Shown here piece after piece: positions 4,476 to 36,931 of a stretch of DNA of 43,321 nucleotides. The DNA comes from Candidatus Pacearchaeota archaeon (GTDB lineage Archaea > Nanobdellota > Nanobdellia > Pacearchaeales > GW2011-AR1): positions 1-43,321 of the forward strand of contig JASFEO010000010.1 of assembly GCA_050124795.1 (NCBI GenBank). The letters are read 5' to 3'. The notes under the pieces are model-generated. The model worked only from the letters and a program-made list of their open reading frames with translations. It ran no database searches and was not told where the DNA came from. A program made the translations under genes and the position numbers. The stretch's first letter is position 1. Each line of letters starts with the position of its first letter.

Positions 4476-4582
4476 TTTAAATAAAGGAGAACTTGTGTTT
4501 TAAATTTTTGCAATAAGAAAATTTGTTCTAACTACTTTCTTTGAATATAAATCTTAATAAATGCTTTATTTTTGTTTTTTTT

Positions 4583-8808: not shown

Positions 8809-9678
8809 TTATTTTAAAAATCTTTTTTTATTTTTCAAAGCATAAATTAAAATTAATAAAACCAGGACTAAAACAGAGACTGAAGTTTTTGGATATCTCT
8901 TTGTAATGCCTGGCTTGCAATCTTGGGGACATGTTTTGTAATTTTCATTATTGCCGCATACTCTGTTTGAATTGCACATAGAAACAGATTCTATAAATGA
9001 ATTTTTTGAAAGAACTGCAAACTGAGAAGTTTTAGTGACAGTTGGATAATCCTGCTTAGTTGCAATAACTTTTAATTCATAAATTCCTGTTTTTTCAGCT
9101 ATCATTGAGTATGGCAAAGTAATTTGTTTTATTGATTTATCAGGATAAGTTAGCACAGCTGCAACTTCAACACCGCCGACATCAGCATTATAATTCAAAT
9201 TCACAGTTTCTCCTATAATGAAACTTTTTGACTTTTGCATTAATGCGCTGTCTTTTGAAGAAACCAAATTCACATGCAAAGGATTTAATGCTCCTGCAAG
9301 GTAAAATGATTTTGAAGATTTGCTAATCAGTTTGTAATCATCTGAATTAAGAAGCCTTATTCTCATTTGATATGCTCCATTGAAAACAAGTTCATTAGTT
9401 GAAAGTTCGTAACTGACTGTTTCTGATTCTTCAGGGGCAAGTTTAATGTATTTAACAAAATTCCTCGGGACAGAGGCTTCAGGATTATTTGAATAAAGTT
9501 CTATTTCCAAAATCCAGTTTACAGGAACTTCTTTTTCATTTGTTATTAAAGACGTTGTTGTGATTTTATCATTAAGTTCATAAGTTGTTTTGTCGAGGCT
9601 AGTTGTCAGACTTTGTGAACTTATAATTCCAATTAGTGAAATCATTATTAAGACTGCAAAGGATATTTTTATTTTCAT
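8809..9678 (-). CDS. Surface protein (signal peptide, beta-rich domains, Cys-rich motif, C-terminal TM anchor)
   Basis: N-terminal signal; CNSNRVCGNNENYKTCPQDC; C-terminal hydrophobic helix followed by KNKKRFLK. Confidence 0.8.
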   Translation of the reverse strand: MKIKISFAVLIMISLIGIISSQSLTTSLDKTTYELNDKITTTSLITNEKEVPVNWILEIELYSNNPEASVPRNFVKYIKLAPEESETVSYELSTNELVFNGAYQMRIRLLNSDDYKLISKSSKSFYLAGALNPLHVNLVSSKDSALMQKSKSFIIGETVNLNYNADVGGVEVAAVLTYPDKSIKQITLPYSMIAEKTGIYELKVIATKQDYPTVTKTSQFAVLSKNSFIESVSMCNSNRVCGNNENYKTCPQDCKPGITKRYPKTSVSVLVLVLLILIYALKNKKRFLK

Positions 9679-11420
9679 GCCCAGGTCACCTCCCTTGCTT
9701 TTGGAACAAATGTCGGGTCGCCCAAAAGAGTGTATTGTCTTCTGACTTCATAATTATAGTCTGCTCTGTTAATTAAATTTGTTGCCATTGTGCCAAGGTC
9801 TAATCTGCTCACACCTGTTAATTCCTGTATCGCCCACATTTCCCAGTTATAGCCGTTTGTCGAGGGAATCGAAGCATGATAAGAAATTCCTCCTCTTCTA
9901 ATCCAGGTCGGACCGAATGTTTCTTCAAGTCCGCTCCAGAAATTATTAGTCTGGCATGCAAGGCTTAAAGTATAAGGCAGGTCAAGCCATGGAATATCTA
10001 AGGAAACTATTGTGCCCGCCCACGACGTCGGAGAGCCATGATCTGCAAAAGAAATAAATTGCTTGCCCTGATAATCTTCATCCTGGATATTTGTGTAGAC
10101 ATCACATTCAGGTTGTGATGCCGCGCCATTCCAGGTGAAACAAATTGAGTCATAACCTGATGCTGAAGTATTTGTTTTAATTGTCTGGGAATTTATCTGG
10201 TCCTGTCCAAAGTTTGGGGCGGCTATTGACATTCCTGTATAGTTTCCTTCTTCGTTATAAATATTGTCGATTAAGTCGTCATAAAATAATACTCTCGCAA
10301 TATAAGAAGATGTTCCGCTTAAAGTTATTGAATAAATTCTCCCAACTTTTAAGTCAGGTTCATCGTCGTCGATAGAGCCGTATAGCCAGTCAGCTGAGCC
10401 GTTTCCTGAATTCCCGCAGTCATGCCAATAAGAGATTCCTTTTGGAGAAGCAACAATTGTAAGATAGCCAGGAGTTTCGTCGAATAAATCAGAAATTTTA
10501 TTTTCTATAAAAGAATCTGCCTCGACAAAATCATTATTGCTGACCCCGGAGTAAGGTCCGCATTCAATTCCGCTTAAGTTCATTCCTAGAATAACTTCGT
10601 GCCTTGCGCTTGCAAGAATCGGAGAGGCCATTGAAAGTGCCAGGAAAGTTTGATTTATCTGGTCTGCTGATTTTTCAGGCTGGAAGTTCTCGATAATTTC
10701 TGTTTCTGAATCATTTACATTTACAAAGATAATTTTATCTGTGTTTGTTTCCTGTATATATTTTTCCTGCAATCCCTCAAGGTCATAAGTATGTGAACAT
10801 GTTCCGTATTCAGGGTCAACATCTCCGACACAAGTGACTCTTCTTCCTGTGAAAACAAATCCTGTATCATGCTCTCCTTTTATAATCAAGGGTGCATTAA
10901 TTAGTGAAGCATAAGTGGAAGCAAGAAGCGCGAGTTCGTATTTATCCTCGACATAAACAATGTCTTTAATGGCATCCCAGTAAGAAAGATAATCACCTGT
11001 TGTAATTGATTGTATTTGGGCAGGGTTTAACCCTGCACCAAGAGTTAAAGGAGAGGTTAAAAGATTTGTTAGTTCCAAAGGAATAGCCCCAACGACAATC
11101 ACCCTGTCAGGGGAATATTTTTGCAAAAAGTGGATTATTGAATCCGCATCAAAGCCAGGATTTTCTTCGTGGAAAATTAAAGTTGGATATTTGTAAACAG
11201 AGCTGTCAGTCCATGTTGAAACCGGGACAAGCCCCATGACCGCTTTCCAGTCTTTGTCAGAAATTAAGAAAACCTGTTTTTCAGTATATTTGCTAAAGTC
11301 CCTGTCGTTTTCAAAAATAAAAGCCCGAACAATAATCAAGATTAAAATTATTATGGCGATAATTAAAAGCATTATAATCAATGCAAAAATATTATTTACT
11401 TTTTTAAGATCAAATGCCAT
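9675..11420 (-). CDS. Membrane-anchored peptidase C25 (gingipain-like) family protein
   Basis: DLKVGRI, FADHGS (His), SLACQT (Cys), YTLLGDP; N-terminal TM helix. Confidence 0.8.
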   Translation of the reverse strand: MAFDLKKVNNIFALIIMLLIIAIIILILIIVRAFIFENDRDFSKYTEKQVFLISDKDWKAVMGLVPVSTWTDSSVYKYPTLIFHEENPGFDADSIIHFLQKYSPDRVIVVGAIPLELTNLLTSPLTLGAGLNPAQIQSITTGDYLSYWDAIKDIVYVEDKYELALLASTYASLINAPLIIKGEHDTGFVFTGRRVTCVGDVDPEYGTCSHTYDLEGLQEKYIQETNTDKIIFVNVNDSETEIIENFQPEKSADQINQTFLALSMASPILASARHEVILGMNLSGIECGPYSGVSNNDFVEADSFIENKISDLFDETPGYLTIVASPKGISYWHDCGNSGNGSADWLYGSIDDDEPDLKVGRIYSITLSGTSSYIARVLFYDDLIDNIYNEEGNYTGMSIAAPNFGQDQINSQTIKTNTSASGYDSICFTWNGAASQPECDVYTNIQDEDYQGKQFISFADHGSPTSWAGTIVSLDIPWLDLPYTLSLACQTNNFWSGLEETFGPTWIRRGGISYHASIPSTNGYNWEMWAIQELTGVSRLDLGTMATNLINRADYNYEVRRQYTLLGDPTFVPKAREVTWA

Positions 11421-11522: not shown

Positions 11523-11530
11523 TTTATAAA
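11523..11530 (+). promoter_or_regulatory. TATA box of the Thr-rich leader ORF
   Basis: TTTATAAA 21 nt before ATG 11552, the same spacing as at genes 532 and 1929. Confidence 0.7.
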
Positions 11531-11551: not shown

Positions 11552-11599
11552 ATGACTTATACTTTTTTAACTAAAACTACGAAGACCACCAAAGCGTGA
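11552..11599 (+). CDS. Putative thrS leader peptide MTYTFLTKTTKTTKA
   Basis: 15-codon ORF with 7 Thr codons (ACT x4, ACG, ACC x2), ending 85 nt upstream of thrS; own TATA box. Confidence 0.8.
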   Translation: MTYTFLTKTTKTTKA

Positions 11600-11684: not shown

Positions 11685-13421
11685 ATGAAAATTTTATGTT
11701 TGCATGTGGATTATGTAAAATTCAGGGCTTTGAAAAAAGCTTTAAAGAAAACAAAAGATTTAAATGAGGACGAGAAAAAAGAAAAACAAGTAAAAGATGC
11801 GCTTGTTGTTATGACTGCGGTTGAAAAGGGAGAGAGTAATGTTGGCATTGCAGTTGAGAAATTAATTAATGAAATTAAAAATATTGCAGAACAGGTTAAT
11901 GCAAAGAATGTTGTTTTATATCCTTATGCGCATTTGTCAAAAAATTTGTCAAGTCCTGAAACTGCAATTAAAGTTTTAGAGGAAGCTGAAAAAAAGTTGA
12001 AAAAAGATTTCAAAGTTTTGCGGGCGCCTTTTGGATATTATAAAGAATTTGAAATGAAAGTCAAGGGTCATCCCTTAAGTGAATTATCGAGGGAAATTGA
12101 AGTTTCAGGAAATGAAGTTGAAGAGGAATATACTAAAGAAGACCATGAAAGACTAATTAAGAGATTATCCAAGGTTAAAATGTCCACTCAAAAAGCTCCG
12201 GGTGGGATGAAAACAAATATTGAATTGGGGCGGGATTTGGATTTGTATATAATCAGCGAGGTTGTTGGTCCGGGTTTGCCTTTGTTCACTCCAAAGGGTG
12301 CGACAATCAAACGAGAGTTAGAAAGATTTGCAATTGATGAAGAACTTAAAAGAGGTTATTTGCATACGGACACTCCAATTATTGCAAAAAGTGATTTGTA
12401 TAAAATTTCCGGGCACTGGCAGCATTTTAAAAATGACATGTTTGTCTTAGATGTTAATGGCGAGAAATTTGCATTAAGACCTATGACTTGCCCTTTTCAG
12501 TTTGTTTTGTATAAAAGAAAACCAAGGAGTTTTAAGGAACTTCCATTGAAGTACGCAGAGATTGCGAATTTATTTAGAAAGGAAAAATCAGGAGAGCTTC
12601 GTGGGTTGACAAGGGTTTGGCAGTTTAAGCTTGCAGATGCCCATCTTATTTGCACGCCCGAACAGCTTGAAGGAGAGTTTGAAGGAGTGCTGGACTTAAT
12701 AAAATATTGCATGGAAAAAGTTGGGTTAAATGAGAATGATTTTTGGTATAGGTTTTCAAAGTGGGATCCGAATGATAAAAAAGAAAAATATATTCAGAAT
12801 CCAAAAGCATGGAGGAGTTCTGAAGCAATGATGAAGAAAATTCTGGATAAATTAAGATTAAAATATGTTGAGGCAAAAGGAGAAGCGGCTTTTTATGGAC
12901 CCAAACTGGATGTTCAATACAAGGATGTTTTCGGAAAGGAGGACACAATGTTCACAATTCAAATTGATTTTGCGCTTCCTGAAAAATACGACATGACTTA
13001 CAGGGACAAGGACAATAAAGACAAAAGACCAATGATTATCCACAGGTCATCTATTGGAGCTCCGGAAAGATTGATCGCATGTTTGCTTGAAAAAAATCAG
13101 GGGAATTTAAAGACATGGCTTTCTCCTGTGCAAGTTAAGATTCTTCCAATGACTAATAAAAATCTAGAATATGCAAAAAAAGTTTTTTCAAAATTAAAAG
13201 AAAATAATATACGTGTTGAAATAAATGAAAGAAACGAATCTATTGGAAAAAGAGTTAGAGATACTTTAGTTCAAAAAGTCCCTTACATAATAACTGTCGG
13301 AGACAAAGAAGAAAAAGATAAAAGTTTGGCAATCCGAGTTCGAGGGGATAAAAAGTTAATTAACAAAGGAGTTGATGATTTTGTTGAAGAATTGAAAAAG
13401 GAAATTAGTGAGAGATTATAA
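11685..13421 (+). CDS. thrS: Threonine--tRNA ligase with archaeal-type N-terminal editing domain
   Basis: YPYAHLS and RAPFGYYKEF...KGHPLSELSR editing domain; LRPMTCP, FRKEKSGELRGLTRV, GEAAFYGPKLD, MIIHRS core. Confidence 0.97.
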   Translation: MKILCLHVDYVKFRALKKALKKTKDLNEDEKKEKQVKDALVVMTAVEKGESNVGIAVEKLINEIKNIAEQVNAKNVVLYPYAHLSKNLSSPETAIKVLEEAEKKLKKDFKVLRAPFGYYKEFEMKVKGHPLSELSREIEVSGNEVEEEYTKEDHERLIKRLSKVKMSTQKAPGGMKTNIELGRDLDLYIISEVVGPGLPLFTPKGATIKRELERFAIDEELKRGYLHTDTPIIAKSDLYKISGHWQHFKNDMFVLDVNGEKFALRPMTCPFQFVLYKRKPRSFKELPLKYAEIANLFRKEKSGELRGLTRVWQFKLADAHLICTPEQLEGEFEGVLDLIKYCMEKVGLNENDFWYRFSKWDPNDKKEKYIQNPKAWRSSEAMMKKILDKLRLKYVEAKGEAAFYGPKLDVQYKDVFGKEDTMFTIQIDFALPEKYDMTYRDKDNKDKRPMIIHRSSIGAPERLIACLLEKNQGNLKTWLSPVQVKILPMTNKNLEYAKKVFSKLKENNIRVEINERNESIGKRVRDTLVQKVPYIITVGDKEEKDKSLAIRVRGDKKLINKGVDDFVEELKKEISERL

Positions 13422-17229: not shown

Positions 17230-18510
17230 TTACTCCCCTTCAAATTCCACAAGTGAAAAAACAGGATACTTAGAAATTTTTTCTTTTCCTTTCAAATCAG
17301 GCAAATCAACAATAAATGCAAATTCAACAATTTCTCCTCCGAGTTTTTCAACTAAATTTCCTGCTGCCTTTGCTGTTCCTCCTGTTGCAATCAAATCATC
17401 AAAAATTAAAACTTTTTGTCCTGGATGAATTGCATCTTTGTGAATTTCAATTGAGTCTGTTCCATATTCTAAATCATATTCCTCTCCTAAAGTCTCAAAT
17501 GGCAGTTTTCCTTTTTTTCTAATTGGAATAAAACCAATTCCAAGTTCATGCGCTAAAATGCTCCCCATTATAAAACCGCGGGATTCAATTCCTGCAACTA
17601 AATCAATTCCTTTGTTTTTATAACGGTTCACGAAAATTTCTATTGCCTTGTCCATTGCCTCTTTGTCTTTTAATAAAGTTGTAATGTCCCGGAACATGAC
17701 TCCTTCTTTTGGCCAGTTTGGCACAGTTCGAATTGAATTTTTAATTTCAAGTTTTTCTGCATCCCCACTAAAAGACTCAATAACATTTATTAGAACTTTT
17801 TTCACGCCCTCGGCATTATCATTAAAAACTTTTAAAATCTGCTCCCATGTCACAGGTTCTGTTGCAGGTCTCCAGCAGTCGTAATCAGTCGGCATTGCAA
17901 TAACTGCATAAGGAATTTCTGCTTCATTTGCTAAAATCGCCTCAGGCGCTGTGGACATATTTACCACATCTGCTCCCCAGGTTTGAAACATTCTGCTCTC
18001 TGCAATAGTTGAAAATCTCGCGCCCTCGATAGTTATTATAGTTCCCCTAAAATGATATTTGTAATCCAAATCCCTGCAGCTCTGAGCCAATCTCTTTCTA
18101 AGTTCCCTTGAAAACGGCCAACTCATTCCAGTATGCTTTGCATTTTTTGGTTCGAAAGTTTTGTAAAAAGAAATATCACGATGCCGTGTAAAATCAATAA
18201 ACTGATCCAATATTACAAATTCCCCTGGCTTTATGTTTTCTTTTAATGAGCCGCACGCAGTAGTTGCTAAAATATATTCACATCCTGATTTCTTTAATGC
18301 AAAAATATTTGCCTTGTTATTAACATAAGTCGGAGGGATTGTGTGCTGTCTGCCATGACGCGAAATAAAAACAACATCAATTCCTTTTATCTTCCCAGTT
18401 ATTAATTTTGACGACGGCATTCCAAAAGGCGTATCAACTTCAACTTCCTTATAATCTTCAATTAATTTCGGATCATCAAGACCAGAACCTCCAATAATAC
18501 CTATTTTCAT
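17230..18510 (-). CDS. mtnP-apt: Fused S-methyl-5'-thioadenosine phosphorylase / adenine phosphoribosyltransferase
   Basis: [29 protein letters not shown] (MTAP); [25 protein letters not shown] (APRT); start moved to ATG 18510. Confidence 0.92.
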
Positions 18511-18531
18511 GAAAAGAAAATTGAAAAGTGT

Positions 18532-18578
18532 TTTATAAGGATTATTGTGATGCAAAGAAACTTTGCAATTAAACATAA
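18532..18578 (-). repeat. Intergenic repeat copy 1 (hairpin + TATA)
   Basis: TTTATAAGGATTATTGTGATGCAAAGAAACTTTGCAATTAAACATAA. Confidence 0.95.
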
Positions 18579-19045
18579 CGGATACTTGCAGAAGGTCCGA
18601 AATATAACTGAAGTTTATTCTCATTGTATGGAACTTGAATTAAATCTCTTTCTATATCAGAAACATATTCAGGAACACTTATTTCTAAAGGTCCAAATTT
18701 CAATAAACCCTCAAGGGAATTAAATAACTCTCTCTGTTTTTTAGGAAGAGCTTTTTTCTCTTCATATGGAATAAATAATCCCTTGCTTGTTTCTATCCAG
18801 ATGTCTGGGAAATTTTTAATTCTCAAATGAGTGTGAATATATTCACCTTCTGCAAATTTTTTTAGATCATAACTTTCATTAGGATGCCCGGGAACTTTTT
18901 TAGGATATTTAAAATCAACTCTAAATCTTTTTCTTGGAAGACCTGTTCTTTTTTCAAGTTTTTCTGCTGTTTTCCCAGCTTGCGCCAAAGTGATTATATA
19001 TTTAGGAATCCGACCTGAAGCAATATCAAATTCTTTTAAAGTCAT
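18569..19045 (-). CDS. Hypothetical protein between repeat copies
   Basis: 158-aa ORF; its stop codon lies inside repeat copy 1. Confidence 0.7.
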
Positions 19046-24012: not shown

Positions 24013-25152
24013 ATGAAAAGAGGGATATTCAAAGTTATATTCGTTGTAATTATTGTTTTAATTTTCCTAAATAAAATTTCTGCGCTTGGAGTAATGCCTG
24101 GAAGATATGAAATTAATTTTCAACCAAATTCAAAAATAACAATCCCCTATCAGGTTCTTGAAGATGACCCCGCAAAAGAATTAAGTATTTCAATTGATGG
24201 AGAATTAGCAAAATACGCTAAATTAAGCAAAGATAAAATTAAGGGAAGTGAAAGTTTTACAGTTACATTAGAATTCCCCGGAGAAGTAGAAACGCCTGGC
24301 AAGAATGTTCTTTATGTAAGAGTAAAAGAAAAAGTAGATGATGAACTTGTAGAGGGAACAGTTGGAACTTCCGTATCAATAGGCGCAGCGATAGTTATTC
24401 ATGTTCCATATCCAGGAAAATTTTTAGAATTAGATCTTTCCTCAAATAATGCAAATGTTGGAGAGCCCATTGATTTTATTCTAAATGTAAAAAGTAAAGG
24501 AACAGATATAATTGTTATGAATCCGAAAATAAAAATTTATTCAGATAAAAATTTGATTGAAACCTTGCAATTTAATGAAAGAGAAATAAAAAGTCAGGAA
24601 GAAATAAAACTAAAAAAAACACTCGATACAACAACTTATAACCCGGGTAAATATAAGGGTATTGCAATTGTTGATTATCTGGATGATGTTGCAAAAGCAG
24701 AGCATGATTTTAGGATTGGGGAACTTGTAATTGATATTATTAATTATACTGATAAAATAAAAATAGGGGGGATAAGAGCATTTGAAATAAATATTGCAAG
24801 CGGCTGGAATAACAAAATAGACGGAGCCTACGCAACTGTTTCGATATTGAATGAAACAAAGCCAATTATTGAGTTTAAAACCGATACTGAAAGTTTAATT
24901 CCTTGGGAAGAAAAGACAATTGTCGGGCATTTCGATTCAACAAATTTTGAAGAAGGAATTTATGATGCAAATATAACCTTGATATACTTTGGAAAAGATC
25001 AGGGACGAAGCACAAGTGAAATTGTAAAGGTTGAATTCGTAAAGGAAACTAGTGTGGTAATCATCGCATCAATTGTATTCGGAATAATCTTAATCGCAGG
25101 AATTGCATTCTTGTTATGGAGACATTTTAAAAATGGAAAAAAGAAAAAATAA
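24013..25152 (+). CDS. Surface protein with Ig-like domains and C-terminal TM
   Basis: Signal peptide (ISA-LGV), beta-rich domains, TM helix + KNGKKKK. Confidence 0.75.
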   Translation: MKRGIFKVIFVVIIVLIFLNKISALGVMPGRYEINFQPNSKITIPYQVLEDDPAKELSISIDGELAKYAKLSKDKIKGSESFTVTLEFPGEVETPGKNVLYVRVKEKVDDELVEGTVGTSVSIGAAIVIHVPYPGKFLELDLSSNNANVGEPIDFILNVKSKGTDIIVMNPKIKIYSDKNLIETLQFNEREIKSQEEIKLKKTLDTTTYNPGKYKGIAIVDYLDDVAKAEHDFRIGELVIDIINYTDKIKIGGIRAFEINIASGWNNKIDGAYATVSILNETKPIIEFKTDTESLIPWEEKTIVGHFDSTNFEEGIYDANITLIYFGKDQGRSTSEIVKVEFVKETSVVIIASIVFGIILIAGIAFLLWRHFKNGKKKK

Positions 25153-27716: not shown

Positions 27717-27890
27717 ATGGGGAAAAAAATAAAGATTAAAGATTCTGCTGTAAAAATTGATTCAGTTCTACTTGCAAAGGTCGAAGAATTTATTTGTAAA
27801 GAAGAAAATCGCCTTAGGTTCGTAAACAAAAAACAATTGATTGATTTGGCAGTTCATGAATATCTAAATAAAATGGAGGGTGCAAAATGA
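27717..27890 (+). CDS. Ribbon-helix-helix (CopG/MetJ/Arc-like) DNA-binding protein, 57 aa, not in ORF track
   Basis: MGKKIKIKDSAVKIDSVLLAKVEEFICKEENRLRFVNKKQLIDLAVHEYLNKMEGAK; ATGA overlap with the giant surface gene. Confidence 0.75.
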   Translation: MGKKIKIKDSAVKIDSVLLAKVEEFICKEENRLRFVNKKQLIDLAVHEYLNKMEGAK

Positions 27891-30800
27891 AGATAAAACA
27901 AATATCTTTGATTATGTTTGCTATTGTGATTTTATTTTTGGGGTTCGCACTGGCTTCACCCCCAGTTTGGGTTGGCTCAGGAATAAATTATTATATTGAT
28001 GAAGATGTTTCTTATTACCATAATCTAAGCGCAAACATAACCGGATTTGCAAATGACGTCACTTTTGCGATAGATACTGAATCAAACATAAACTGGACAA
28101 ATGCAAGCGGAACAAATTCTGTTGCCTCCAGTGTTGTCTCGTCATGGATAAAAATTTTGAACTCCTCAAATGGTAATCTGTCTATTAATGCGACCCATGA
28201 CAACCAAACAGGATTTTTTGTAATCCCAATACAGGCGACAAACACAACTGATGAAGAAGGTTCAATTACAAATTTTGAATTTGTAGTTAATGCAACAAAT
28301 GATGCTCCAAATTTTATAAACATAGAATCTGAATATAATCTAACTCAGGGGGCAAATTTTCTTAATTATACAAATGCAAGCGATGAAGAAGAACAATATC
28401 CTCTGCATTTTAATATAAGTTTTTTTAACAATTGTACTCATGCAGGATGGAGTTCAAGAACAAACTGTTCTTTGTTTGATTTAATAGATGTTACAAACAC
28501 TTCTGCAATAATGAATTTTACTCCTACAACAAACGATGTTGGAACATACTGGGCGAATATAACTGTAAATGACTATGGTGAAAATTATTCCTGCCCCCAT
28601 GCTTACTGCGACAACTCAACTTATATGCAAAATAAATCAACATCTCAGATTGTTCAGTTTAATGTTTTATCCTCGCTAACAATAAATGTGACCAACTGCA
28701 CAGGAATGATTTTTCAGGAAAATGAATCCAGCGTCTGCACAATTAGCATAAGAACAAAAGGAGAAACTGATTCAATTAATTCATCAAGTGTTGCTGATTT
28801 AAGAAATTACGCCGGAAGTATATCAAATACATCATGGTTTTACGCAGAAAATAATTCTGTCTCAACTAATTTTACAAAAACATTTTATGTAAATGTAACC
28901 CCTGAGAAAACTGAGATTGGAAATTGGACAATTAATTTTACAGTTATTGATTCAACAGAAGGGGAAGTTTCTTCAGAATTAATTTATGTTTATGTTAATA
29001 GGACAAGTAATGATATCCCTGATTTAACTGATATTGATAACACAAATACTTCAATTGATTTAGAGACAACAATTTCTTTAACTGTTTACGACGATGATTT
29101 ATTAATTCCTGATAAAGATGATTTCAATGAAACAACAAGTTTTGATGTTACAATTTTGAACCAATCAAATTTATCTCAGGAATTATCTTTAACTGGTTTT
29201 GATGTTGATATTTTGAGCATGCCTGTAACTGGCACAAACAGAACAAGCGCAAGAATACAGTTTACTCCGAATTCAAGTGAGATTGGAAACTATACTATTA
29301 ATATAACAGTAAATGATGTTGATAATACCCTTGATTCAGATTTATTTAATTTATCAATTTTTGATAATAATTTCCCTGTTTGGAATCAGACAGAATATTC
29401 ATTTGATTTAATTGTTAACTCAAGTCTTGCAACAACTGCTGCGTTTGGTCCGGTTAATTTAACCGGCGATGGTTATGTAACAGATACAGGAGATACTTTA
29501 ACTTTTGCAAATGATTCAAATGCTCACCCGGGTTTTAGCATGACTTCAGCGGGTTATATTTCATTTACTCCTTACAAGCAGGATGTTGGCTCATGGAATT
29601 TTATAGTAACAGCGACGGATTCATTGGGATTGCAAAACCAGACAACCTTTAGATTTAATATAACTAATGTAAATTCAGAACCAGTAATTTTAAGTCCGAT
29701 AACACCAATAAATGCAACAGTAGATGTTAATTCAAATATTAATGCAACTGAAGACAATTATACAACTTTGACATTATATTTGCAGGACGAGGATTTCAGG
29801 ATTGCATCAAGTAAAAAAGATTATTATAATGAAAGCATTAGTTTTAATTTGACAATAGAAGGAAATAATCCTAATTTATTTAGTTTTACAAAAAATTCAG
29901 GGTTTCCGCTTCCGGGAAATAACCAAAGCCTTTATACTGCAACATTCACGCCAAACGCAAGCGACGTTGGAGGTTATAATATCACAATAAATGTAACTGA
30001 TGAGAGTAATGCCGGTGATGTGCTGCAATTTAATCTGACAATTTTTTCTGCATCAGACGCGCCGATACTAACACCGCTTTCAAATTATACAACCGCAGTA
30101 AACAGAAATTTTTATCTTGATATGAATGCAACTGATGAGGAGGACGGAAATGATTCAACTGGAAATTTAACTTATGCTTATGCATTTAATAATGGAACAG
30201 ATTTCTTTAACTCAACTAATTTTAATTCAACAACCGGTGTGATAAATATAACTTTTAATTCAACACAGGCAGGAAGTTTTTCAATAAACATAACTGTTAA
30301 TGATACAACAAATGAAATTGACACAGATTCGTTTTGGATTTATGTTTATGATGCCCCCAATGTTACTTACCCTGCGACAGGAAATAATTTTGCATTGCAG
30401 GAAAACTCAACAACTAATTTAACATTCACAGCAAACAATTCTGTCGGGACAAATTTAACTTATGAATTTTATATAAATAATTCATTAAAATATAATTTAA
30501 GTTATCATGGAAATGCAACTAATCTGACCTGGTCATTTACCCCTAATTTTTCTGATGAGACTTACGGAAATAATTACAATCTTACTTTGGTTTCTTATCC
30601 AACAGATTCAAATCTTGAAAACAGAACAGAGGTAAATACAACAACAAACTGGGATGTGAATATTTCGCATGCAAATGCGCCGGTTGTTTTCTCAGGATAT
30701 ATAGGAGACAAACAGGCGGCATACACAAGCACAATTGAAATAGATTTGTCATCTTATTTTTCAGATGTTGATTATAATGATGCAGCCTACAATCAGTCAA

Positions 30801-31963
30801 TTAATTTTAGTGTTGCAAGCAATTCTTCATCAAGTTATATTTCTTCAAGTGTTTCATCTGACTGGACCTTGACATTATCTTCATTAATACCAATTTCAGA
30901 AGTTCTCAATGTAACCGGCAATGATTCTTCAACAAATGCAACGAGCAATTATTTTAATGTTGAGTTCACTACTCCATCGACAGTGACAGTTACAACTCCT
31001 ACAAGCGGGGGGGGAGGAACAACAACTATTCCTGTTTCATTAAAAATAATAATGCCCAACCCGGTTTCAGCTTATCAACAGGACAGAATTGTTTTACCAT
31101 TGACACTTTATAACAACGGGCAGAGAACCCTTTCAGGAATTTCTTTATCAAGCCTGATTGCCAAGGATAATGTCCTAAGAGATGACTTAGTGATATCTTT
31201 TGATGAAGATTATTTTACAAGTCTTGCAGTTGGCGAGAAGAAAAATATCACCATGACTGTTGATATTGACACAACTGAAGTCGGAACTTTTGAATTAACT
31301 GTGAATGCGGATGTGGATAACCCAGATTATAGTGACTGGGGGAAACTTTACTTAACAATAAAAGAGAGCAATTCCAGTCTTCTTGAGAAATTAATTTTTA
31401 CTCAGGAGTTTTTGCAGGAGAACCCGGAATGCATCGAATTGGAAGAACTTCTTGATGAAGCAAGAATGTTTTTTGCCAAAGGAGATTTTTTAAGTACTAT
31501 TGTGAAAATTCAGGAGGCAATTAATGGATGCAAAAATGCAATCTCGCAGGAGGCAAGGGCGAAAAGAAGAGAACCAACAGAAAATAAATTATACAGATAT
31601 TTATTAATTGTAAGTATTATTGTTTTCTTTTTGGGATTGGGGTATTATTCTTATAAAAGAATGAAACTCCGTCGCGGAAGCGGGGAATATTTTGTAAAAA
31701 CAAATGACAATAAAAATATTTTTAGAGAAACATCTGCGTTGGTCTCCGCGGGGGCAGGCTTGTCTATGTTGCTCCTCGCAAATAAAAGTATTGTTGGATT
31801 TACAATAAATAATGCAATTACTGAAAATAAAGCGGGGGGGATATGGATTTTAATTGTCTTTTTAATTTTAATCGGAGCGTTTATGGTTTTGTCAAAAAGA
31901 AAAAAAGAGTTAAAAAAAATTCAAAAAATAAAATATTTGAGGAACAGGAATGGAAAATTTTAA
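27887..31963 (+). CDS. Large surface glycoprotein/adhesin with tandem cadherin/Ig-like repeats and C-terminal TM helices
   Basis: Signal peptide; repeated NDAP / FTPNxSxxGxYxINITVND motifs; dense N-x-S/T; TPTSGGGG hinge; SD GGAGGGTG. Confidence 0.85.
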   Translation: MKIKQISLIMFAIVILFLGFALASPPVWVGSGINYYIDEDVSYYHNLSANITGFANDVTFAIDTESNINWTNASGTNSVASSVVSSWIKILNSSNGNLSINATHDNQTGFFVIPIQATNTTDEEGSITNFEFVVNATNDAPNFINIESEYNLTQGANFLNYTNASDEEEQYPLHFNISFFNNCTHAGWSSRTNCSLFDLIDVTNTSAIMNFTPTTNDVGTYWANITVNDYGENYSCPHAYCDNSTYMQNKSTSQIVQFNVLSSLTINVTNCTGMIFQENESSVCTISIRTKGETDSINSSSVADLRNYAGSISNTSWFYAENNSVSTNFTKTFYVNVTPEKTEIGNWTINFTVIDSTEGEVSSELIYVYVNRTSNDIPDLTDIDNTNTSIDLETTISLTVYDDDLLIPDKDDFNETTSFDVTILNQSNLSQELSLTGFDVDILSMPVTGTNRTSARIQFTPNSSEIGNYTINITVNDVDNTLDSDLFNLSIFDNNFPVWNQTEYSFDLIVNSSLATTAAFGPVNLTGDGYVTDTGDTLTFANDSNAHPGFSMTSAGYISFTPYKQDVGSWNFIVTATDSLGLQNQTTFRFNITNVNSEPVILSPITPINATVDVNSNINATEDNYTTLTLYLQDEDFRIASSKKDYYNESISFNLTIEGNNPNLFSFTKNSGFPLPGNNQSLYTATFTPNASDVGGYNITINVTDESNAGDVLQFNLTIFSASDAPILTPLSNYTTAVNRNFYLDMNATDEEDGNDSTGNLTYAYAFNNGTDFFNSTNFNSTTGVINITFNSTQAGSFSINITVNDTTNEIDTDSFWIYVYDAPNVTYPATGNNFALQENSTTNLTFTANNSVGTNLTYEFYINNSLKYNLSYHGNATNLTWSFTPNFSDETYGNNYNLTLVSYPTDSNLENRTEVNTTTNWDVNISHANAPVVFSGYIGDKQAAYTSTIEIDLSSYFSDVDYNDAAYNQSINFSVASNSSSSYISSSVSSDWTLTLSSLIPISEVLNVTGNDSSTNATSNYFNVEFTTPSTVTVTTPTSGGGGTTTIPVSLKIIMPNPVSAYQQDRIVLPLTLYNNGQRTLSGISLSSLIAKDNVLRDDLVISFDEDYFTSLAVGEKKNITMTVDIDTTEVGTFELTVNADVDNPDYSDWGKLYLTIKESNSSLLEKLIFTQEFLQENPECIELEELLDEARMFFAKGDFLSTIVKIQEAINGCKNAISQEARAKRREPTENKLYRYLLIVSIIVFFLGLGYYSYKRMKLRRGSGEYFVKTNDNKNIFRETSALVSAGAGLSMLLLANKSIVGFTINNAITENKAGGIWILIVFLILIGAFMVLSKRKKELKKIQKIKYLRNRNGKF

Positions 31964-32028: not shown

Positions 32029-33621
32029 ATGACTACAGAAAATTTTGAAAAACTCATTTCGAAAAGGGATGGTTTATTAAAGAGAAATCTCAACAAGGAA
32101 TTAAAATTAGCACAAATTAATCTAAAAAAAGACATTAAAGAAAATGAGACTCCAAAAAATAATTTCACTATTAGCAATAATAAACCGGAAAATCCTTTTG
32201 CAAACCAGAAAAAAGTTTTAGCGCCGATGATTGTTAGAGAAGAAAAGGCCGGGGAGATGAAAAATCCCGGAGATGAAAAACCTATTTTAAAAAATGAGAA
32301 TTCAGGGAATAAAAAAGGGATATTTAGTTTTTTGAAAAAAGAGCGGGAAACAATTAAAGGGAATATTTCTAAAGAAACCCCCCCGGAAAAAATCATTAAA
32401 AAGAAAATAGATAATAAAAAGATAAAAGAAGAAAAACTAAAAGTCAGGGTGAGAGATATGAAAAAACCTTGTGGGGTGAAACCAACAAAAGGAATTTTGG
32501 AAAAGGAAATGGAGATTGACAGAAGAATTTCGCGAGAGGTTGAGCCAAGGTTGGAAAAGGAATTTTCTAAGAAGAAAAAACAACGTAGAAAATTGAAGAT
32601 AAGTTCTGAGGAAGAAGTTAAAAAAGAGATTGTAAAAAATTCTGCAAAGCATGTGTCAAGACTCTCAGGGGAAGTTAATGAAATCGCAAGAGATATATCC
32701 CAATTAAAAGGAGAAGTAAGAAAATCTGTTGTGGGGCAGGAGGGAGTAATTGACGCATTTATCTGCGCGATACTTTGCGACGGGCATGTGCTATTGGAAG
32801 GTGTCCCAGGAGTTGCAAAAACATTGATTGTAAAAACACTGGCAGAAGCTTCGGGATGCAGTTCAAACAGGATTCAATTTACAGTTGACTTATTGCCAAG
32901 TGATATTTTAGGTATAACAACTTACACCCCGCAAAAAGGTTTTGAAACAATCAGGGGGCCGATTTTTTCTAATTTTATTGTTGCTGATGAAATAAACAGA
33001 AGTCCTCCGAAGACTCAGTCGGCGATGATTGAAGCAATGCAGGAAAAACAGGTTACAATTGGGAAGCAAACTTTCAAACTTCCTTTGCCGTTTTTTGTAA
33101 TGGCAAATAATAATCCCTTGGAACAGAGCGGAGTGTATGATCTTCCTGAAGCGCAGATTGATAGATTCCTTTTCAAGCTTTTAATTGGCTATCCGGAAAA
33201 CAAAGAAGAAGTAAAAATTATGGAAGAGAATATGACAATAAAAAAGTTTGAGAGTTTTGGTGTAAAGCCTGTTCTTTCCCCTCAGAAAATCACGCGCATG
33301 CAGCAGATAACAAAAGAAATTTATGTTGATGAAAGGATAAAGGAATATATTGTAAGGATAATTGACAAGACAAGAAAAAGAGATTTCGAAAACGGGCAAT
33401 TTATTGAATGGGGGGGTTCACCAAGGGCGAGCATTGGTCTTTTTATTGCATCAAAGGCGTGGGCGCTAATGAATGGAAGAGCGTATGTAATCCCAAAAGA
33501 TGTAAAAGATATTGCGCATTATGTTCTAAGGCACAGGGTGATTTTGAATTATCGGGCGAAGGCAGAAAAGCTTACGTCTGACAGAATTATTGACGAGATT
33601 CTTGATATGATTGAAGTTTAA
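32029..33621 (+). CDS. moxR: MoxR-family AAA+ ATPase with long charged N-terminal extension
   Basis: HVLLEGVPGVAKT, RIQFTVDLLPSDI, ADEINRSPPKTQSA, LPEAQIDRF, SPRAS. Confidence 0.93.
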   Translation: MTTENFEKLISKRDGLLKRNLNKELKLAQINLKKDIKENETPKNNFTISNNKPENPFANQKKVLAPMIVREEKAGEMKNPGDEKPILKNENSGNKKGIFSFLKKERETIKGNISKETPPEKIIKKKIDNKKIKEEKLKVRVRDMKKPCGVKPTKGILEKEMEIDRRISREVEPRLEKEFSKKKKQRRKLKISSEEEVKKEIVKNSAKHVSRLSGEVNEIARDISQLKGEVRKSVVGQEGVIDAFICAILCDGHVLLEGVPGVAKTLIVKTLAEASGCSSNRIQFTVDLLPSDILGITTYTPQKGFETIRGPIFSNFIVADEINRSPPKTQSAMIEAMQEKQVTIGKQTFKLPLPFFVMANNNPLEQSGVYDLPEAQIDRFLFKLLIGYPENKEEVKIMEENMTIKKFESFGVKPVLSPQKITRMQQITKEIYVDERIKEYIVRIIDKTRKRDFENGQFIEWGGSPRASIGLFIASKAWALMNGRAYVIPKDVKDIAHYVLRHRVILNYRAKAEKLTSDRIIDEILDMIEV

Positions 33622-33640: not shown

Positions 33641-34895
33641 AGTTTAATTTTAATATCTTAATTCCGTTCATATAGGGAACTAAAACTTTCGGCAATCTAA
33701 CACTCCCATCCTTTTGCTGAAAGTTGTTTAAAATAGCAATTAAAATTCTGTTTGCGACACCGCCAGTTGCATAAATTGTATGCGCAAATTCCTCCTTTCC
33801 CTTTCCGGAAAATTTTATATTTCCCCGTCTTGCCTGAAAACTTGCGGTCATTCCAATACTACCGACTTCCCCCCATCTTTCTTCTCCGGCCATATAAACT
33901 TCCAGGTCTTTTTCTATTGTTGCTTTGTTTGGCATATCATTTGCTCGATGAGTGATAACCCTATGGGGGAGTTCTAAAGTTTTGTAAAGTTCTTTTAAGT
34001 CTTCGAAAATTTGGTTATATTCTTTTTCCTCATTTTCGGGAGTTGTGATATGGGTTAATTCCACTTTATCAAACTGGTGTGTTCTGTAAAGACCTTTGTC
34101 ATCAGCGTGGTTTCCTGCTTCCCGACGGTAACAGGGAGTGTAACACATAAATTTTTTCGGCAATTCCTTTTTATTAAATAGATCATTTTTGAAAACTGCC
34201 AAAACTGAAATTTCCCCTGTTCCAACAAAAACTTTTCCATCTTCAGTTTTATAGACTTCGTCTTCCCCGCCGGGATAATGTCCTGTTATGTAAAGATTTT
34301 CTTCATTCACATAATATGGAGGAATTAATTCAAAGTAACCCTTCTTTCTCCAAAAATCAAGAATGAAATTTGTAATCGCCCTGTTAAGTCTGGCAGCATC
34401 TCCTTTCAACATCCAGCCTCTGTCTCCTGCTGCCTTAATTGCCTTCTTAAAATCTGCTAAATTTAAATCCAACAAAATTTCCCAATTTCTTTTTGGCTTA
34501 AAATCAAATTTAGATTTTTTTATTTCACTTTCCCAATCAACTCTGTCAACATCACTTACCGGAACATCTTTATGCAATACATTTGGAATTTTGTAAACTA
34601 AAGCATTATATTCTTTATCTAACTTCTTAAACTTTAATCCTGTTTCTTTAAGTTTTGCATTATTCTCTCTGCTTTCTTCTACAAATTTTTTAAAATCCTT
34701 TTTTTGTTTTTTTGCGCCATTAACCTTTTCATTCAAAAGATTTCTTTTTCTTCTTAATTCATCTAAATTTTTTTTTACTTTTTTCCATTCTTCATATTTT
34801 CCTAAAAGCAAATCTATATCAACATCCAATTCTCTTGCCTTTATTGAATGTTTAACAATTTTCTGATTTTCCTGTATGTATTTTCTGTCTAACAT
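33639..34895 (-). CDS. serS: Serine--tRNA ligase (standard/bacterial type)
   Basis: N-terminal coiled coil, IPNVLHKDVP, YTPCYRREAG, GLYRTHQFDKVE, FQARR, QQKDGSVRLPKVLVPYM. Confidence 0.96.
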   Translation of the reverse strand: MLDRKYIQENQKIVKHSIKARELDVDIDLLLGKYEEWKKVKKNLDELRRKRNLLNEKVNGAKKQKKDFKKFVEESRENNAKLKETGLKFKKLDKEYNALVYKIPNVLHKDVPVSDVDRVDWESEIKKSKFDFKPKRNWEILLDLNLADFKKAIKAAGDRGWMLKGDAARLNRAITNFILDFWRKKGYFELIPPYYVNEENLYITGHYPGGEDEVYKTEDGKVFVGTGEISVLAVFKNDLFNKKELPKKFMCYTPCYRREAGNHADDKGLYRTHQFDKVELTHITTPENEEKEYNQIFEDLKELYKTLELPHRVITHRANDMPNKATIEKDLEVYMAGEERWGEVGSIGMTASFQARRGNIKFSGKGKEEFAHTIYATGGVANRILIAILNNFQQKDGSVRLPKVLVPYMNGIKILKLN

Positions 34896-34917
34896 TTTAT
34901 TTAAATTATAGAATTTT

Positions 34918-34959
34918 AAAGAACAAATGAAAACTTCAAAACCCCATAAAGATTTTGAA
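34918..34959 (-). terminator. Putative attenuator hairpin plus U-rich tract after the serS leader
   Basis: Minus strand: TTCAAAATC-TTTATGG-GGTTTTGAA then GTTTTCATTTGTTCTTT, starting right after the leader stop codon. Confidence 0.55.
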
Positions 34960-35013
34960 TTAGTATGAACTAGAACTGCTTACAGAACCTGAATTCATAC
35001 TTTTGTTTCTCAT
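34960..35013 (-). CDS. Putative serS leader peptide MRNKSMNSGSVSSSSSY
   Basis: 17-codon ORF with 8 Ser codons including 5 consecutive (AGC AGT TCT AGT TCA), ending 64 nt upstream of serS. Confidence 0.82.
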   Translation of the reverse strand: MRNKSMNSGSVSSSSSY

Positions 35014-35034
35014 GAAGTAAAAGAAGATTTAATC

Positions 35035-35042
35035 TTTATAAA
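35035..35042 (-). promoter_or_regulatory. TATA box of the Ser-rich leader ORF
   Basis: TTTATAAA 21 nt before ATG 35013. Confidence 0.7.
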
Positions 35043-35118
35043 TTTATCGCTGAGTTTTTTGTTTTTTATAAAAGCAAGTTTTAAAAATTCTTATTTCTAT
35101 ATCTTTACAGAGGTGAAG

Positions 35119-36006
35119 ATGGAACAAGGAAAACTTAATGTGGATATAGCAAAGGCGATTTCTGAACTTGAGGCAATGCTTAAGGAATTCAGGCTGAAGA
35201 TTCCTCTTTACAAAATGTTTTTCAGGGGGAAAGGTCTGGAATTTGATGGTTACAGAGATTTTTATCCTGATGATGATGCAGAAAGAATTGACTGGAAAGC
35301 GAGTTCGCGGGCGCGGAAACTTCTTGTAAAGCAGTATATTGAGGAAAGAGATATAAGAGTTATGTTTATTATTGACGTCGGAGAAAACATGGTTTTTGGT
35401 TCAACTGAGAGAATTAAATGCGAGTTTGTTACTGAACTTGTTGCTGCGTTTTCAAAAGTCATGCTTAATGTAAATGACAGAATTGGATTTATATTTTTTT
35501 CAGATGCAATAACTCATTTTGTTGACTGCAAATCAGGTGAAAGGCAATTTAATATTTTTATAGAAACTCTTTCAGATGGAAAAAACTACGGGGGCACAAC
35601 AGACCTTGACCTTGCGCTTGACTTTGCAGTAGACTATCTTGATGATTCAATTTCTTCAGTTATCCTTGTCTCAGACTTTCTTAACATAAGTGCGCAGACT
35701 GAAAAAAAATTAGGACTTTTGTCACATAGATTTGAAACAATCGCAATAAGAGTCAGAGACCCTCTTGACATGACTCTCCCGGATATTGAAGGAGAAGTTA
35801 TTTTGGAAGACCCGAAAACACATCATCAGGTAATTATTAATCCAAAGGTTGCAAAAATGAGTTATGAAAAATATGCTTATATGCAAGGAAGGATGGTAAA
35901 GGAAATGTTTGAAAAGAGCGAACTTGACCATGTTGATTTAACCACAGACAAATCTTTTGCAGAACCACTAACACTATTTTTAAAAGAAAGGCTAGAGGGG
36001 TTATAA
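35119..36006 (+). CDS. DUF58 domain protein (MoxR-associated)
   Basis: GKGLEFDGYRDFYPDDDAERIDWKASSR...LLVKQYIEER; SD GAGGTGA before ATG 35119. Confidence 0.92.
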   Translation: MEQGKLNVDIAKAISELEAMLKEFRLKIPLYKMFFRGKGLEFDGYRDFYPDDDAERIDWKASSRARKLLVKQYIEERDIRVMFIIDVGENMVFGSTERIKCEFVTELVAAFSKVMLNVNDRIGFIFFSDAITHFVDCKSGERQFNIFIETLSDGKNYGGTTDLDLALDFAVDYLDDSISSVILVSDFLNISAQTEKKLGLLSHRFETIAIRVRDPLDMTLPDIEGEVILEDPKTHHQVIINPKVAKMSYEKYAYMQGRMVKEMFEKSELDHVDLTTDKSFAEPLTLFLKERLEGL

Positions 36007-36007
36007 A

Positions 36008-36931
36008 ATGGCAGTGTTTACATTCACACATTCGCAATATCTCTTTTTTCTTTTTTTAATTCCACTTCTTTTTTTAATTCATTTTTTTTCATTATCAAAC
36101 AAAAAAAAAGTTGCATTAAGATTTGCAAATTTTGACGCGATTTCCAGAATCAGGGGGATTGATTTTTTTTCTAAAAACATTGTAATCTTATCTTTAAATG
36201 TAGCAATAGTATTTTTTTTAATTCTCGCTCTTTCAGGATTAACTGTTCAGGTAACAAAAGAGTCCAGTTCTTTTTCGTTTGTAATTGCGATTGATTCATC
36301 CGAAAGTATGCTTGCAGATGATTTCTCTCCGAATAGAATAACTGTTGCAAAAGATATTGCAAGAGAATTTGTTGACTCTGTTCCAAGAGGGGTCATGATG
36401 GGGGTGGTTTCTTTTTCAGGGAATGCATATATTGAACAGGATTTAACAAATGATAAAATTGAAATAAAAAATTCAATAAATCAAATAAAAATAAATGGGT
36501 GGGGGGGAACTGATCTTTATGAAGCAGTTATAAATTCTGCAAATATTTTTAATAATGAGGAAAACAAAGCAGTTGTAGTACTAAGTGACGGGCAAATAAA
36601 TGTAGCGAATCTCGATACAATAATCAGTTATGCTCAACAAAAGAGGGTTCTTATTCACACAATTGCTATTGGGACTGAAGAAGGGGGGGAGACTCCTTAC
36701 GCAATTTCAAAACTTGACAAGGATTCATTAAATGCCCTTGCTTACAACACGGGTGGGAAAGCATTTTTAGCTGAGGACAGAAACGCATTAGAAGAATCCC
36801 TTTTAAGCATCCTTGATTTGACTGAAAGAAAAGTCTCAATAGATGCTGGAAATTATTTAATTTTGTTTGCGATAATTTTATTTTCAGTAGAAATCTTTTT
36901 AATAAATACAAGGTACTTAAATATTCTCTGA
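36008..36931 (+). CDS. BatA-like von Willebrand factor A domain membrane protein
   Basis: N-terminal BatA-type TM helices; MIDAS DSSES, GGTD, LSDG; C-terminal TM. Confidence 0.9.
   Translation: MAVFTFTHSQYLFFLFLIPLLFLIHFFSLSNKKKVALRFANFDAISRIRGIDFFSKNIVILSLNVAIVFFLILALSGLTVQVTKESSSFSFVIAIDSSESMLADDFSPNRITVAKDIAREFVDSVPRGVMMGVVSFSGNAYIEQDLTNDKIEIKNSINQIKINGWGGTDLYEAVINSANIFNNEENKAVVVLSDGQINVANLDTIISYAQQKRVLIHTIAIGTEEGGETPYAISKLDKDSLNALAYNTGGKAFLAEDRNALEESLLSILDLTERKVSIDAGNYLILFAIILFSVEIFLINTRYLNIL

Follow-up and report, generated by a model that had tools for sequence, protein, structure and literature searches.

A serine-codon leader reading frame ahead of serS in a DPANN archaeon as a candidate for ribosome-mediated attenuation

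The subject of this study is the region ahead of a gene for seryl-tRNA synthetase (serS, encoding SerRS) on a 43,321-nucleotide contig of an archaeon assigned to Candidatus Pacearchaeota (JASFEO010000010.1; this whole stretch is called the window below). On the minus strand, the serS gene is preceded by a short open reading frame (sORF) rich in Ser codons, whose ATG coincides with the predicted start of transcription and whose stop codon is directly followed by two conserved and mutually exclusive RNA helices. We propose, with a probability of roughly 0.6, that a leader peptide sensed by the ribosome controls serS at this locus, a reading suggested by sequence comparison. The wider claim would be that this is the first case of archaeal ribosome-mediated attenuation that we could find, in which leaderless sORFs of a DPANN family, rich in Ser, Thr or His codons, separate the synthetase or tRNA gene of the same amino acid from an upstream promoter and adjust its expression to the charging of tRNA. 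No bacterial-type terminator would be involved, and promoter interference or control of translation from the long transcript might take its place; for this wider claim we consider the arguments for and against to be evenly balanced. The features of the serS locus are as follows:

35035 to 35047, minus strand: promoter P1, with TATA box TTTATAAA at 35042-35035 and an A-rich stretch resembling a B recognition element (BRE) just upstream
35013 to 34960, minus strand: leader ORF of 17 codons plus TAA, encoding MRNKSMNSGSVSSSSSY with 8 Ser
34962 to 35001, minus strand: hairpin A, enclosing the Ser run, with arms 35001-34992 and 34971-34962 (10 bp)
34935 to 34959, minus strand: hairpin 3:4, pairing UUCAAAAUC (34959-34951) with GGUUUUGAA (34943-34935) in 9 bp including one G-U
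34906 to 34949, minus strand: alternative hairpin 4:5, pairing 34949-34934 with 34921-34906 in 16 bp around a 12-nt U-rich loop
34895 to 33639, minus strand: serS, 418 amino acids, matching TIGR00414 (E 5e-108) and Pfam PF02403 and PF00587

A preliminary description of the window had quoted the Ser-rich reading frame and its use of both Ser codon boxes, and the frame is present exactly as quoted. Between the ATG (35013-35011) and the TAA (34962-34960), the Ser codons are in order AGT, TCA, TCT, AGC, AGT, TCT, AGT and TCA, so that AGY and TCN codons are both represented. Eight Ser in 16 codons have a p value of 1.9e-5 under intergenic base composition, and among 73 promoter-associated sORFs upstream of called genes the Ser sORF is one of two strongly skewed peptides that are not rich in Lys or Arg. 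The serS ATG follows after a gap of 64 nt and no Shine-Dalgarno motif is found upstream of it. On the other side of the 223-bp intergenic region, a divergent DUF58/VWA gene begins at 35119 behind a GAGGTGA motif. The promoter-leader-serS unit as a whole (35058-33636) is located between a MoxR AAA+ gene (32029-33621) and the DUF58 and VWA/BatA genes (35119-36931), and MoxR AAA+, DUF58 and VWA/BatA genes usually form one operon.

The host is an archaeon of DPANN type, presumably uncultured. Its genome (G000; other G labels denote genomes of relatives and L labels individual loci) is assembled into 38 contigs of 1.06 Mb in total, with 32% G+C and 90% completeness. The archaeal model is the best match of its clan for the small-subunit rRNA (1264 bits), further archaeal marks are intron-bearing tRNAs, Elp3 and an archaeal-type threonyl-tRNA synthetase (ThrRS), and the close SerRS relatives of the window's enzyme belong to records labelled Woesearchaeota or Nanoarchaeota. 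In a search of sequencing runs, the sequence turned up in a single DNA run, which is probably that of the source sample, and in none of RNA; the contigs of the DNA run contain an identical 43-kb contig without variants. Since TAA ends 660 of 999 ORFs, it is a stop codon in this genome, and a call of a tRNA with a stop anticodon vanished once introns were allowed. An ARAGORN call of a tRNA-Gln with an 841-nt intron (G000:C4:18264-19199) is probably an artefact of intron-bearing tRNA genes like the stop-anticodon tRNA.

Genome-wide fractions given here are approximate because the gene set consists of 999 naively called ORFs of at least 100 amino acids. Relative to the ATGs of these ORFs, base composition is A-rich at -36..-31, followed by TTT at -29..-27 and AWAAA at -26..-22, and this signal at fixed distance is a BRE/TATA promoter placed as expected for leaderless transcripts. 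A promoter matrix built from this signal of G000 itself scores at least 7 at 364 of the 999 ORF starts, from which we estimate that at least 36% of ORFs are probably leaderless. Shine-Dalgarno-like motifs precede only 3% of the ORFs scoring at least 7; the figure is 33-40% for the remaining genes and 7.6% for 15-mers from intergenic DNA. Matches of at least 7 were also found near the 5' end of 27 of 36 tRNA genes, and in 20 of these 27 the zero position of the matrix falls 1-3 nt before the mature tRNA 5' end, a calibration that makes it a fair proxy for the transcript start. As a side observation, the tRNA promoters place the start at this short distance although an RNase P RNA is present (G000:C17:10284-10539).

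The best minus-strand match in the intergenic region between serS and the DUF58 gene is P1, which scores 10.43 with its zero position on the A of the sORF ATG (35013), the TATA box thus spanning -29..-22. This score lies in the top 11% of gene starts; outside gene starts, only 61 of 6673 intergenic ATGs reach it. The serS ATG itself scores -9.3, and between 35012 and 34880 no minus-strand match exceeds 4; on the plus strand, the best match (11.1) corresponds to a predicted start at 35109, and the DUF58 ATG follows 10 nt later. As P1 is the only good minus-strand promoter of the intergenic region by predicted start, the sORF would lie in the 5' leader of the serS transcript, and the most economical reading of the predicted signals is that serS is transcribed from P1 with a transcript opening on the sORF AUG. 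A consensus scan also proposed a bacterial-type TTTTCA-17-TATAAT downstream of the sORF, which is irrelevant in an archaeon.

Homologous leaders were found in three relatives, and the peptides encoded by all four are listed here:

G000 (window): MRNKSMNSGSVSSSSSY, 8 of 17 residues Ser
G389: MRNKSMNSSSVSSSSSSY, 10 of 18 residues Ser
G457: MLMNMSSSSVSSSSSN, 9 of 16 residues Ser
G526: MKTKMNLNSSVSSSSSY, 7 of 17 residues Ser

The G389 leader precedes a serS whose product is 86% identical to that of the window. Leader DNA was searched in two partly overlapping samples of 401 genomes each, one of the family and one of the order. The family sample gave two further real matches, in G457 (80%) and G526 (76%), while weaker matches were A+T-rich noise; the order sample gave 2 leader matches that were both already known and added none. 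A pattern search of viral contigs with the core of the Ser run had 0 matches. P1 sits on the sORF ATG in all four Ser leaders, with scores of 10.4 (G000), 8.8 (G389), 10.3 (G457) and 11.3 (G526).

The reading frame is open in all four leaders and both alternative frames contain stops. Between G000 and G389, the differences are the synonymous changes AAC to AAT and TCA to TCG, the stop change TAA to TAG, GGT to AGT (Gly to Ser) and one additional in-frame TCA. In the core GTA AGY AGT TCT AGT TCN, variation is confined to third positions, and G526 switches the codon box by having TCT TCG where the others have GGT/AGT TCT. Across the four leaders, indels inside the ORF are all of 3 nt, and beyond the stop they also measure 1 nt and 4 nt. 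The N-terminal halves of the peptides diverge freely and the Ser run is kept. This pattern of conservation is what selection on translated Ser codons would predict. The preliminary description had proposed a poly-Ser leader of serS and had named missing conservation of the Ser codons in relatives among the findings that would speak against it. This part held up in the comparison, as three relatives keep 7-10 Ser codons; its view of the locus as a whole stood with regard to a conserved leader, but it had missed the leaderless start with TATA at -29..-22 and the Thr counterpart that is presented further below.

The serS genes behind these leaders are of two kinds. The window's SerRS belongs to a clade of about 65 metagenomic proteins that are 53-88% identical to it, and the next best matches are bacterial ones at about 39% (e.g., Thermotogae). 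Genes of this type are patchily distributed, with occurrence in 3 of 355 sampled family genomes, and two loci, L112 (74%) and L032 (67%), also carry it (at least two members of the clade among the matches listed). Four of five loci of relatives (G080, G177, L112 and L032) have no leader and instead show a canonical TATA box at -29..-22 or -30..-23 directly before serS. The G389 locus is homologous to that of G000 at the nucleotide level from 35058 to 33636 (83.5%), and this homology ends at both edges of the promoter-leader-serS unit, which therefore looks like an inserted cassette. Short contigs such as G389:C43 may be assigned to the wrong genome when metagenomes are binned; for the window contig, a foreign origin is made less likely by the only thrS match of G000, which lies on it. 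In G457 and G526, the leader stands before the sole serS gene, whose product resembles in its N-terminal sequence the standard type that G000 has as a second copy. Since the leader is thus joined to two very different serS genes, it appears tied to function and not to one gene lineage, and the idea that it marks an "accessory" serS copy is ruled out by G457 and G526, which carry it on their only one. G000 and G389 each have a second, standard serS under its own leaderless promoter (in G000 at C16:11970-10714, minus strand, 32% identical to the window's serS), and promoter-associated sORFs rich in Ser were absent from all 27 standard serS loci that were compared in other relatives.

The region behind the sORF stop can fold in two ways that exclude each other. 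Hairpin A is formed by AGTATGAA (35001-34994), the exact reverse complement of TTCATACT (34969-34962), in a stem that extends to 10 bp. The perfect pairing of these two segments had been pointed out in the preliminary description and is correct, yet conserved only in part: Across the four leaders, 87.5% of cells are paired, the inner 5 bp are kept in all of them and 3 pairs vary on one side. The 9-bp hairpin that the same description had placed after the stop is there as well (our 3:4, with one G-U) and recurs in 4 of 4 leaders, where 97.2% of cells are paired and one pair has changed on both sides (U-A, C-G, U-G). It contains only 2 G-C pairs and is followed by the tail GUUUUCAUUUGUUCUUU. Hairpin 4:5 is likewise present in 4 of 4 leaders, with 96.7% of cells paired, 7 pairs that vary on one side and 1 on both. 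When tested as whole structures comprising helix A and the named helix, slid controls gave 25-53% for 3:4 and 33-51% for 4:5. Both hairpins use 34943-34935 and are therefore mutually exclusive. Of the two, 4:5 is the minimum-free-energy structure in the window, G389 and G526, and an RNAalifold consensus retains helix A and 4:5; the 171-nt leader folds with z = -2.47 relative to 200 shuffles, 4 of which fold as well. Arm 3 starts 1-2 nt past the stop codon in every Ser leader, so that a ribosome at the stop must cover this arm and an early stall must leave it free. Hairpin 4:5 excludes the serS start codon and ends between 10 nt (G000) and about 45 nt (G526) before it.

The Ser leader has counterparts for two other amino acids, one of them on the same contig:

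11552 to 11599, plus strand: leaderless Thr sORF encoding MTYTFLTKTTKTTKA, 7 of 15 residues Thr, with TATA box TTTATAAA at 11523-11530
11685 to 13421, plus strand: thrS, 578 amino acids, TIGR00418 (E 1.5e-151), with GGAG at -14..-11 and its own TATA box at -29..-22
G000:C3:70979-71366 (= L273:1114-1500): His element, with family loci L274-L301

The Thr sORF lies 85 nt ahead of thrS with a promoter score of 10.7 and a skew of p = 4.5e-6. Together with the Ser leader it provides the two most skewed peptides that are not rich in Lys or Arg among the promoter-associated sORFs scoring at least 8. At the thrS ATG, the promoter score is 8.0 in G000, and the corresponding value behind the Thr leader of a relative, G274, is 4.4. 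The latter leader, encoding MKNSLFTKTRTTTTTK, was the one other case among 26 family loci with matched N-terminus (the window's own included), and a DNA search of 401 genomes with the Thr leader gave 2 matches only. It shares an identical 85-nt gap and conserved spacer blocks with the window's leader although the ThrRS proteins are only 48-50% identical, and the small hairpin just past the stop differs by one base pair in length through paired insertions (G000/G274). The His sORF on contig C3 of G000, MALKFCNCRHH, is leaderless with a score of 13.5 and lies 98 nt before a gene for tRNA-His that is followed by hisS. A related promoter-associated sORF is found at 14 of 30 family hisS loci, with one His codon invariant and a second one present in 7. 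Codons 2-4 of this sORF pair with a segment past its stop in a stem that shows three compensatory G-C to A-U changes, and the tRNA-His gene has its own TATA box downstream of the leader. The His element occurs much more widely than either the Ser or the Thr leaders. Taken together, the three amino acids would appear to share one design, in which a promoter is followed by a leaderless sORF containing cognate codons, a helix adjoins the stop and the gene behind it often has a promoter of its own. Among the genes downstream of 13 other promoter-associated sORFs only hisS was relevant; the others encode a PBP-like transglycosylase, RpoB, AlaRS (behind a non-cognate sORF), the PolD small subunit, Orc1/Cdc6, PGK, a transporter and five proteins without family.

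Two simple explanations for the Ser sORF can be weighed on this basis. The first is a chance ORF in an AT-rich intergenic region, where base composition by itself leads one to expect random ORFs of about 12 codons and skewed sORFs are plentiful (the top 30 of 2629 being rich in Lys, Glu, Asp, Met or Gly). This explanation is already strongly disfavoured given the skew of the window's sORF (p = 1.9e-5), a promoter coincidence met by only 61 of 6673 ATGs, conservation in three other genomes and the agreement of the Thr and His counterparts. The second is that the small Ser-rich peptide serves a separate purpose and has nothing but the operon in common with serS. The ORF is indeed conserved and probably translated, and small leaderless ORFs are common in G000, where 147 intergenic ATGs have a promoter score of at least 8, 76 of them with peptides of up to 60 amino acids. 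However, the N-terminal half of the peptide is poorly conserved and only the Ser run is kept, and a separate function would leave both the helices abutting the stop and the Thr and His parallels before their own synthetases without explanation, so that we regard it as very unlikely.

We favor a leader that reports on the charging of tRNA-Ser. A transcript beginning at 35013 would present the sORF as a sensor of charged tRNA-Ser that samples codons read by all three tRNA-Ser species, which in G000 have the anticodons GCU, GGA and UGA. With plentiful Ser-tRNA, the ribosome would reach the stop and cover 34959-34951, and hairpin 4:5 could form. With scarce Ser-tRNA, a stall in the Ser run would free 34959-34951 to pair with nascent 34943-34935 and thereby block 4:5, and the choice of helix would set serS expression from the P1 transcript. 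The direction that we favor is homeostatic, with scarcity leading to more SerRS and 4:5 as the "off" form that may act on read-through, serS translation or RNA stability. Translation of the sORF, stalling and the identity of the "on" helix are points that we infer. The homeostatic logic fits the distribution of a second promoter, P2, at the serS ATG, which scores -9.3 in G000, 5.5 in G389, 8.8 in G457 and 8.2 in G526: The genomes lacking a good P2 (G000 and G389) have a second, constitutive serS, and those with a single serS (G457 and G526) have a strong P2, which under this logic can supply a basal level.

The same sensor could also be wired in the opposite direction through promoter interference. 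In that case, a stall would favor 3:4 with its U-rich tail and end the P1 transcripts, while plentiful Ser-tRNA would let P1 read-through occlude P2 and lower expression. A strong P2 at leaderless distance is found behind 3 of 6 Ser and Thr leaders (Ser in G457 with 8.8, Ser in G526 with 8.2 and Thr in G000 with 8.0), a weaker one lies behind the Thr leader of G274 (4.4), and the His leaders also precede the TATA box of the tRNA-His gene. A run of U8 lies directly behind 3:4 in G457, and neither G457 nor G526 has a Shine-Dalgarno motif before serS that would serve a read-through transcript. T-runs of at least 5 are modestly enriched after stop codons in G000 (167/501 compared to 101/431 controls), as would suit transcript ends of this kind; TTCTTT, also considered as a terminator word, was only 1.4-fold as frequent after stop codons and not enriched. 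Against these points, the window's serS has no usable P2 and that of G389 a weak one, so that in these two genomes read-through must be the productive transcript. Moreover, the U-run is missing in G389 and G526, and thrS as well as the G389 serS have GGAG motifs suited to read-through transcripts. On balance, we consider the reversed wiring unlikely, but treat it as the main competitor of our reading.

Several observations weigh against our preferred reading of a ribosome-sensed leader, and some of them speak for another explanation, namely a conserved structured RNA or mobile DNA module in which the ORF is incidental and not read by the ribosome. From the Val codon through the stop, 24 nt are identical between G000 and G526, which exceeds what peptide-level selection needs and points to either an added constraint at the RNA level or recent transfer. 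Only four Ser leaders were found, and they are spread over four genera; the leader is missing from seven other genomes of the genus of G526 (present in 1 of 8), and the genus of G457, represented by a single genome, gave no further one. Another genome, G416, has three copies of the leader's 3' half, and the two that were examined are arranged in tandem without a Ser ORF or serS. These two form a 196-nt tandem repeat (G416:C1, L245:1381-1790) with the third match on C65. Besides the 3:4 hairpin, the repeat retains a degenerate end of the Ser run and a portion of arm 5, and it could have arisen from the leader by decay or mobilisation.

A module of this kind would account for the 24-nt identity, the sporadic spread across genera despite 76-85% leader identity and the ORF-less copies in G416, and the Ser run is hexamer-periodic, while the MTAK-like start of the His element is explained by its stem. 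It would not account for the agreement between the ATG and the predicted start of the transcript, which is exact in 6 of 6 Ser and Thr leaders, or for the promoter-associated sORF at 14 of 30 hisS loci. The maintained frame, in-frame indels, third-position substitutions and codon-box switch likewise speak for a translated ORF, in each of three separate systems the enriched amino acid is that of the enzyme encoded downstream, and no Rfam family was matched. We thus judge a module with an incidental ORF to be unlikely. As for Rfam itself, only a tRNA reached the gathering score in the whole window, and a search of 34700-35300 at E values up to 10 gave three chance-level matches to unrelated families and no T-box.

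Further points against the leader-peptide reading concern the helices and the fate of the transcript. The preliminary description had seen in 3:4 a terminator-like hairpin within a 1:2 / 3:4 attenuator, and neither part could be upheld. A consensus scan of the minus strand from 34600 to 35400 found no terminator-like site, the hairpin has just its 2 G-C pairs, and the minimum-free-energy fold uses the 16-bp 4:5 in its place; to our knowledge, termination by a hairpin plus U-run is not established in archaea. The U-rich tail, which had been part of the same claim, exists in the window (U4...U3...U3) and in G457 (U8), that is, in 2 of 4 leaders, and G389 and G526 have no run above 3. The 1:2 / 3:4 scheme offers no switch because nothing in it competes with the terminator, and the conserved competition comes instead from a third arm (34921-34906), whose pairing partner is the 3' arm of 3:4. 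This 4:5 helix, in turn, is not a terminator by any known rule and has no U-run behind it in any of the four leaders. Covariation is weak, given that shuffle controls were not exceeded with four sequences (246/500 for 3:4 and 114/500 for 4:5). Static folds with the ribosome footprint masked yield 4:5 in every state and do not separate the states, so that any helix switch would have to depend on kinetics, 3:4 being the first to form whenever arm 3 is free. The U8 behind 3:4 in G457 hints at the reversed wiring, which would be sensible only on the condition that read-through from P1 disturbs P2. No Shine-Dalgarno motif precedes serS in the window even though 33-40% of the promoterless genes in G000 have one (a GGAG motif precedes serS in G389 and none that of G457 or G526), and this does not fit well with translation of serS from the long transcript. 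Finally, a limited full-text literature search gave no archaeal leader-peptide attenuator, which is not proof of absence, and the same limited search brought up neither a serS leader with Ser codons nor an account of the regulation of archaeal aminoacyl-tRNA synthetase genes.

Ribosome-mediated attenuators of bacteria include the trp and his systems and the leader peptide of E. coli pheST, where the regulated gene encodes an aminoacyl-tRNA synthetase, and leader-peptide sensing has so far been regarded as a bacterial mechanism reliant on terminator hairpins. In Firmicutes, T-box riboswitches precede serS, thrS and hisS and bind the tRNA directly without need of an ORF; they share with the elements described here the regulated genes and the sensed quantity (tRNA charging), but there is no Rfam T-box match at our locus even at E up to 10. 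Like the bacterial attenuators, the Ser leader combines a short ORF enriched in cognate codons with predicted, mutually exclusive helices directly behind its stop. Unlike them, it is found in an archaeal host, its ORF is leaderless and without a Shine-Dalgarno motif, no G+C-rich terminator hairpin with a conserved U-run is present, the competing helix lies downstream of 3:4 and not upstream, and some members have a complete second promoter behind the leader. Leader-peptide attenuation of bacteria is described in general terms in two articles (PMC1183508, PMC4007540).

Two bacterial systems with leaderless sORFs come closer. For Deinococcus deserti, one report presents predicted leaderless leader peptides before tRNA synthetase and amino-acid genes, 14 cases that were not experimentally tested (PMC4007540). 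As in our case, the peptide there is rich in the cognate residue and the downstream gene can be a tRNA synthetase (cysS is the example shown), but the organism is a bacterium in which the promoter has a sigma-type -10 element and the synthetase gene a Shine-Dalgarno motif ahead of it (PMC4007540). The poly-cysteine leaderless sORFs of mycobacteria (the "ribulon") were tested, and the stalled ribosome is reported to act via mRNA structure (10.1101/834739). Likenesses to this system are leaderless sORFs with a run of cognate codons, several loci of one design (10.1101/834739) and a transcript start on the sORF ATG, which in 4 of 4 Ser leaders is predicted only. The system differs in being bacterial and in controlling cysteine metabolism rather than synthetases (10.1101/834739), and our locus differs from this type in lacking a Shine-Dalgarno motif before the window's serS and in the position of hairpin 4:5, whose end precedes the start codon by 10 nt (G000) to about 45 nt (G526).

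Other genes of the window are mentioned for completeness. An ORF of 464 amino acids at 17230-18624 (minus strand) matches S-methyl-5'-thioadenosine phosphorylase over residues 40-283 and adenine phosphoribosyltransferase over residues 291-463, and by these matches looks like a fusion of two salvage enzymes. At 4541-6328 (plus strand), a bacterial-type DnaG primase (TIGR01391, E 1e-123) is encoded in this archaeal genome. Four large ORFs had no NCBIfam match: 27887-31963 (plus strand, 1358 amino acids), 9675-11420 (minus strand, 581 amino acids), 6325-7803 (plus strand, 492 amino acids) and 24013-25152 (plus strand, 379 amino acids).

If our reading is true, it would, as far as our literature search goes, be the first leader-peptide control found for archaea and also the first described control of an aminoacyl-tRNA synthetase gene in this domain. 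Leader-peptide sensing needs only coupled transcription and translation, and three systems with conserved cognate-codon leaders in a single archaeal family would demonstrate that it is not confined to one domain of life. They would also raise the question of how archaeal RNA polymerase or the archaeal ribosome responds to alternative helices. With about 150 nt, the element is self-contained and could be transferred to a tractable archaeon, and searches for promoter-anchored sORFs of the kind used here can reveal regulatory elements in uncultured organisms with leaderless genomes.

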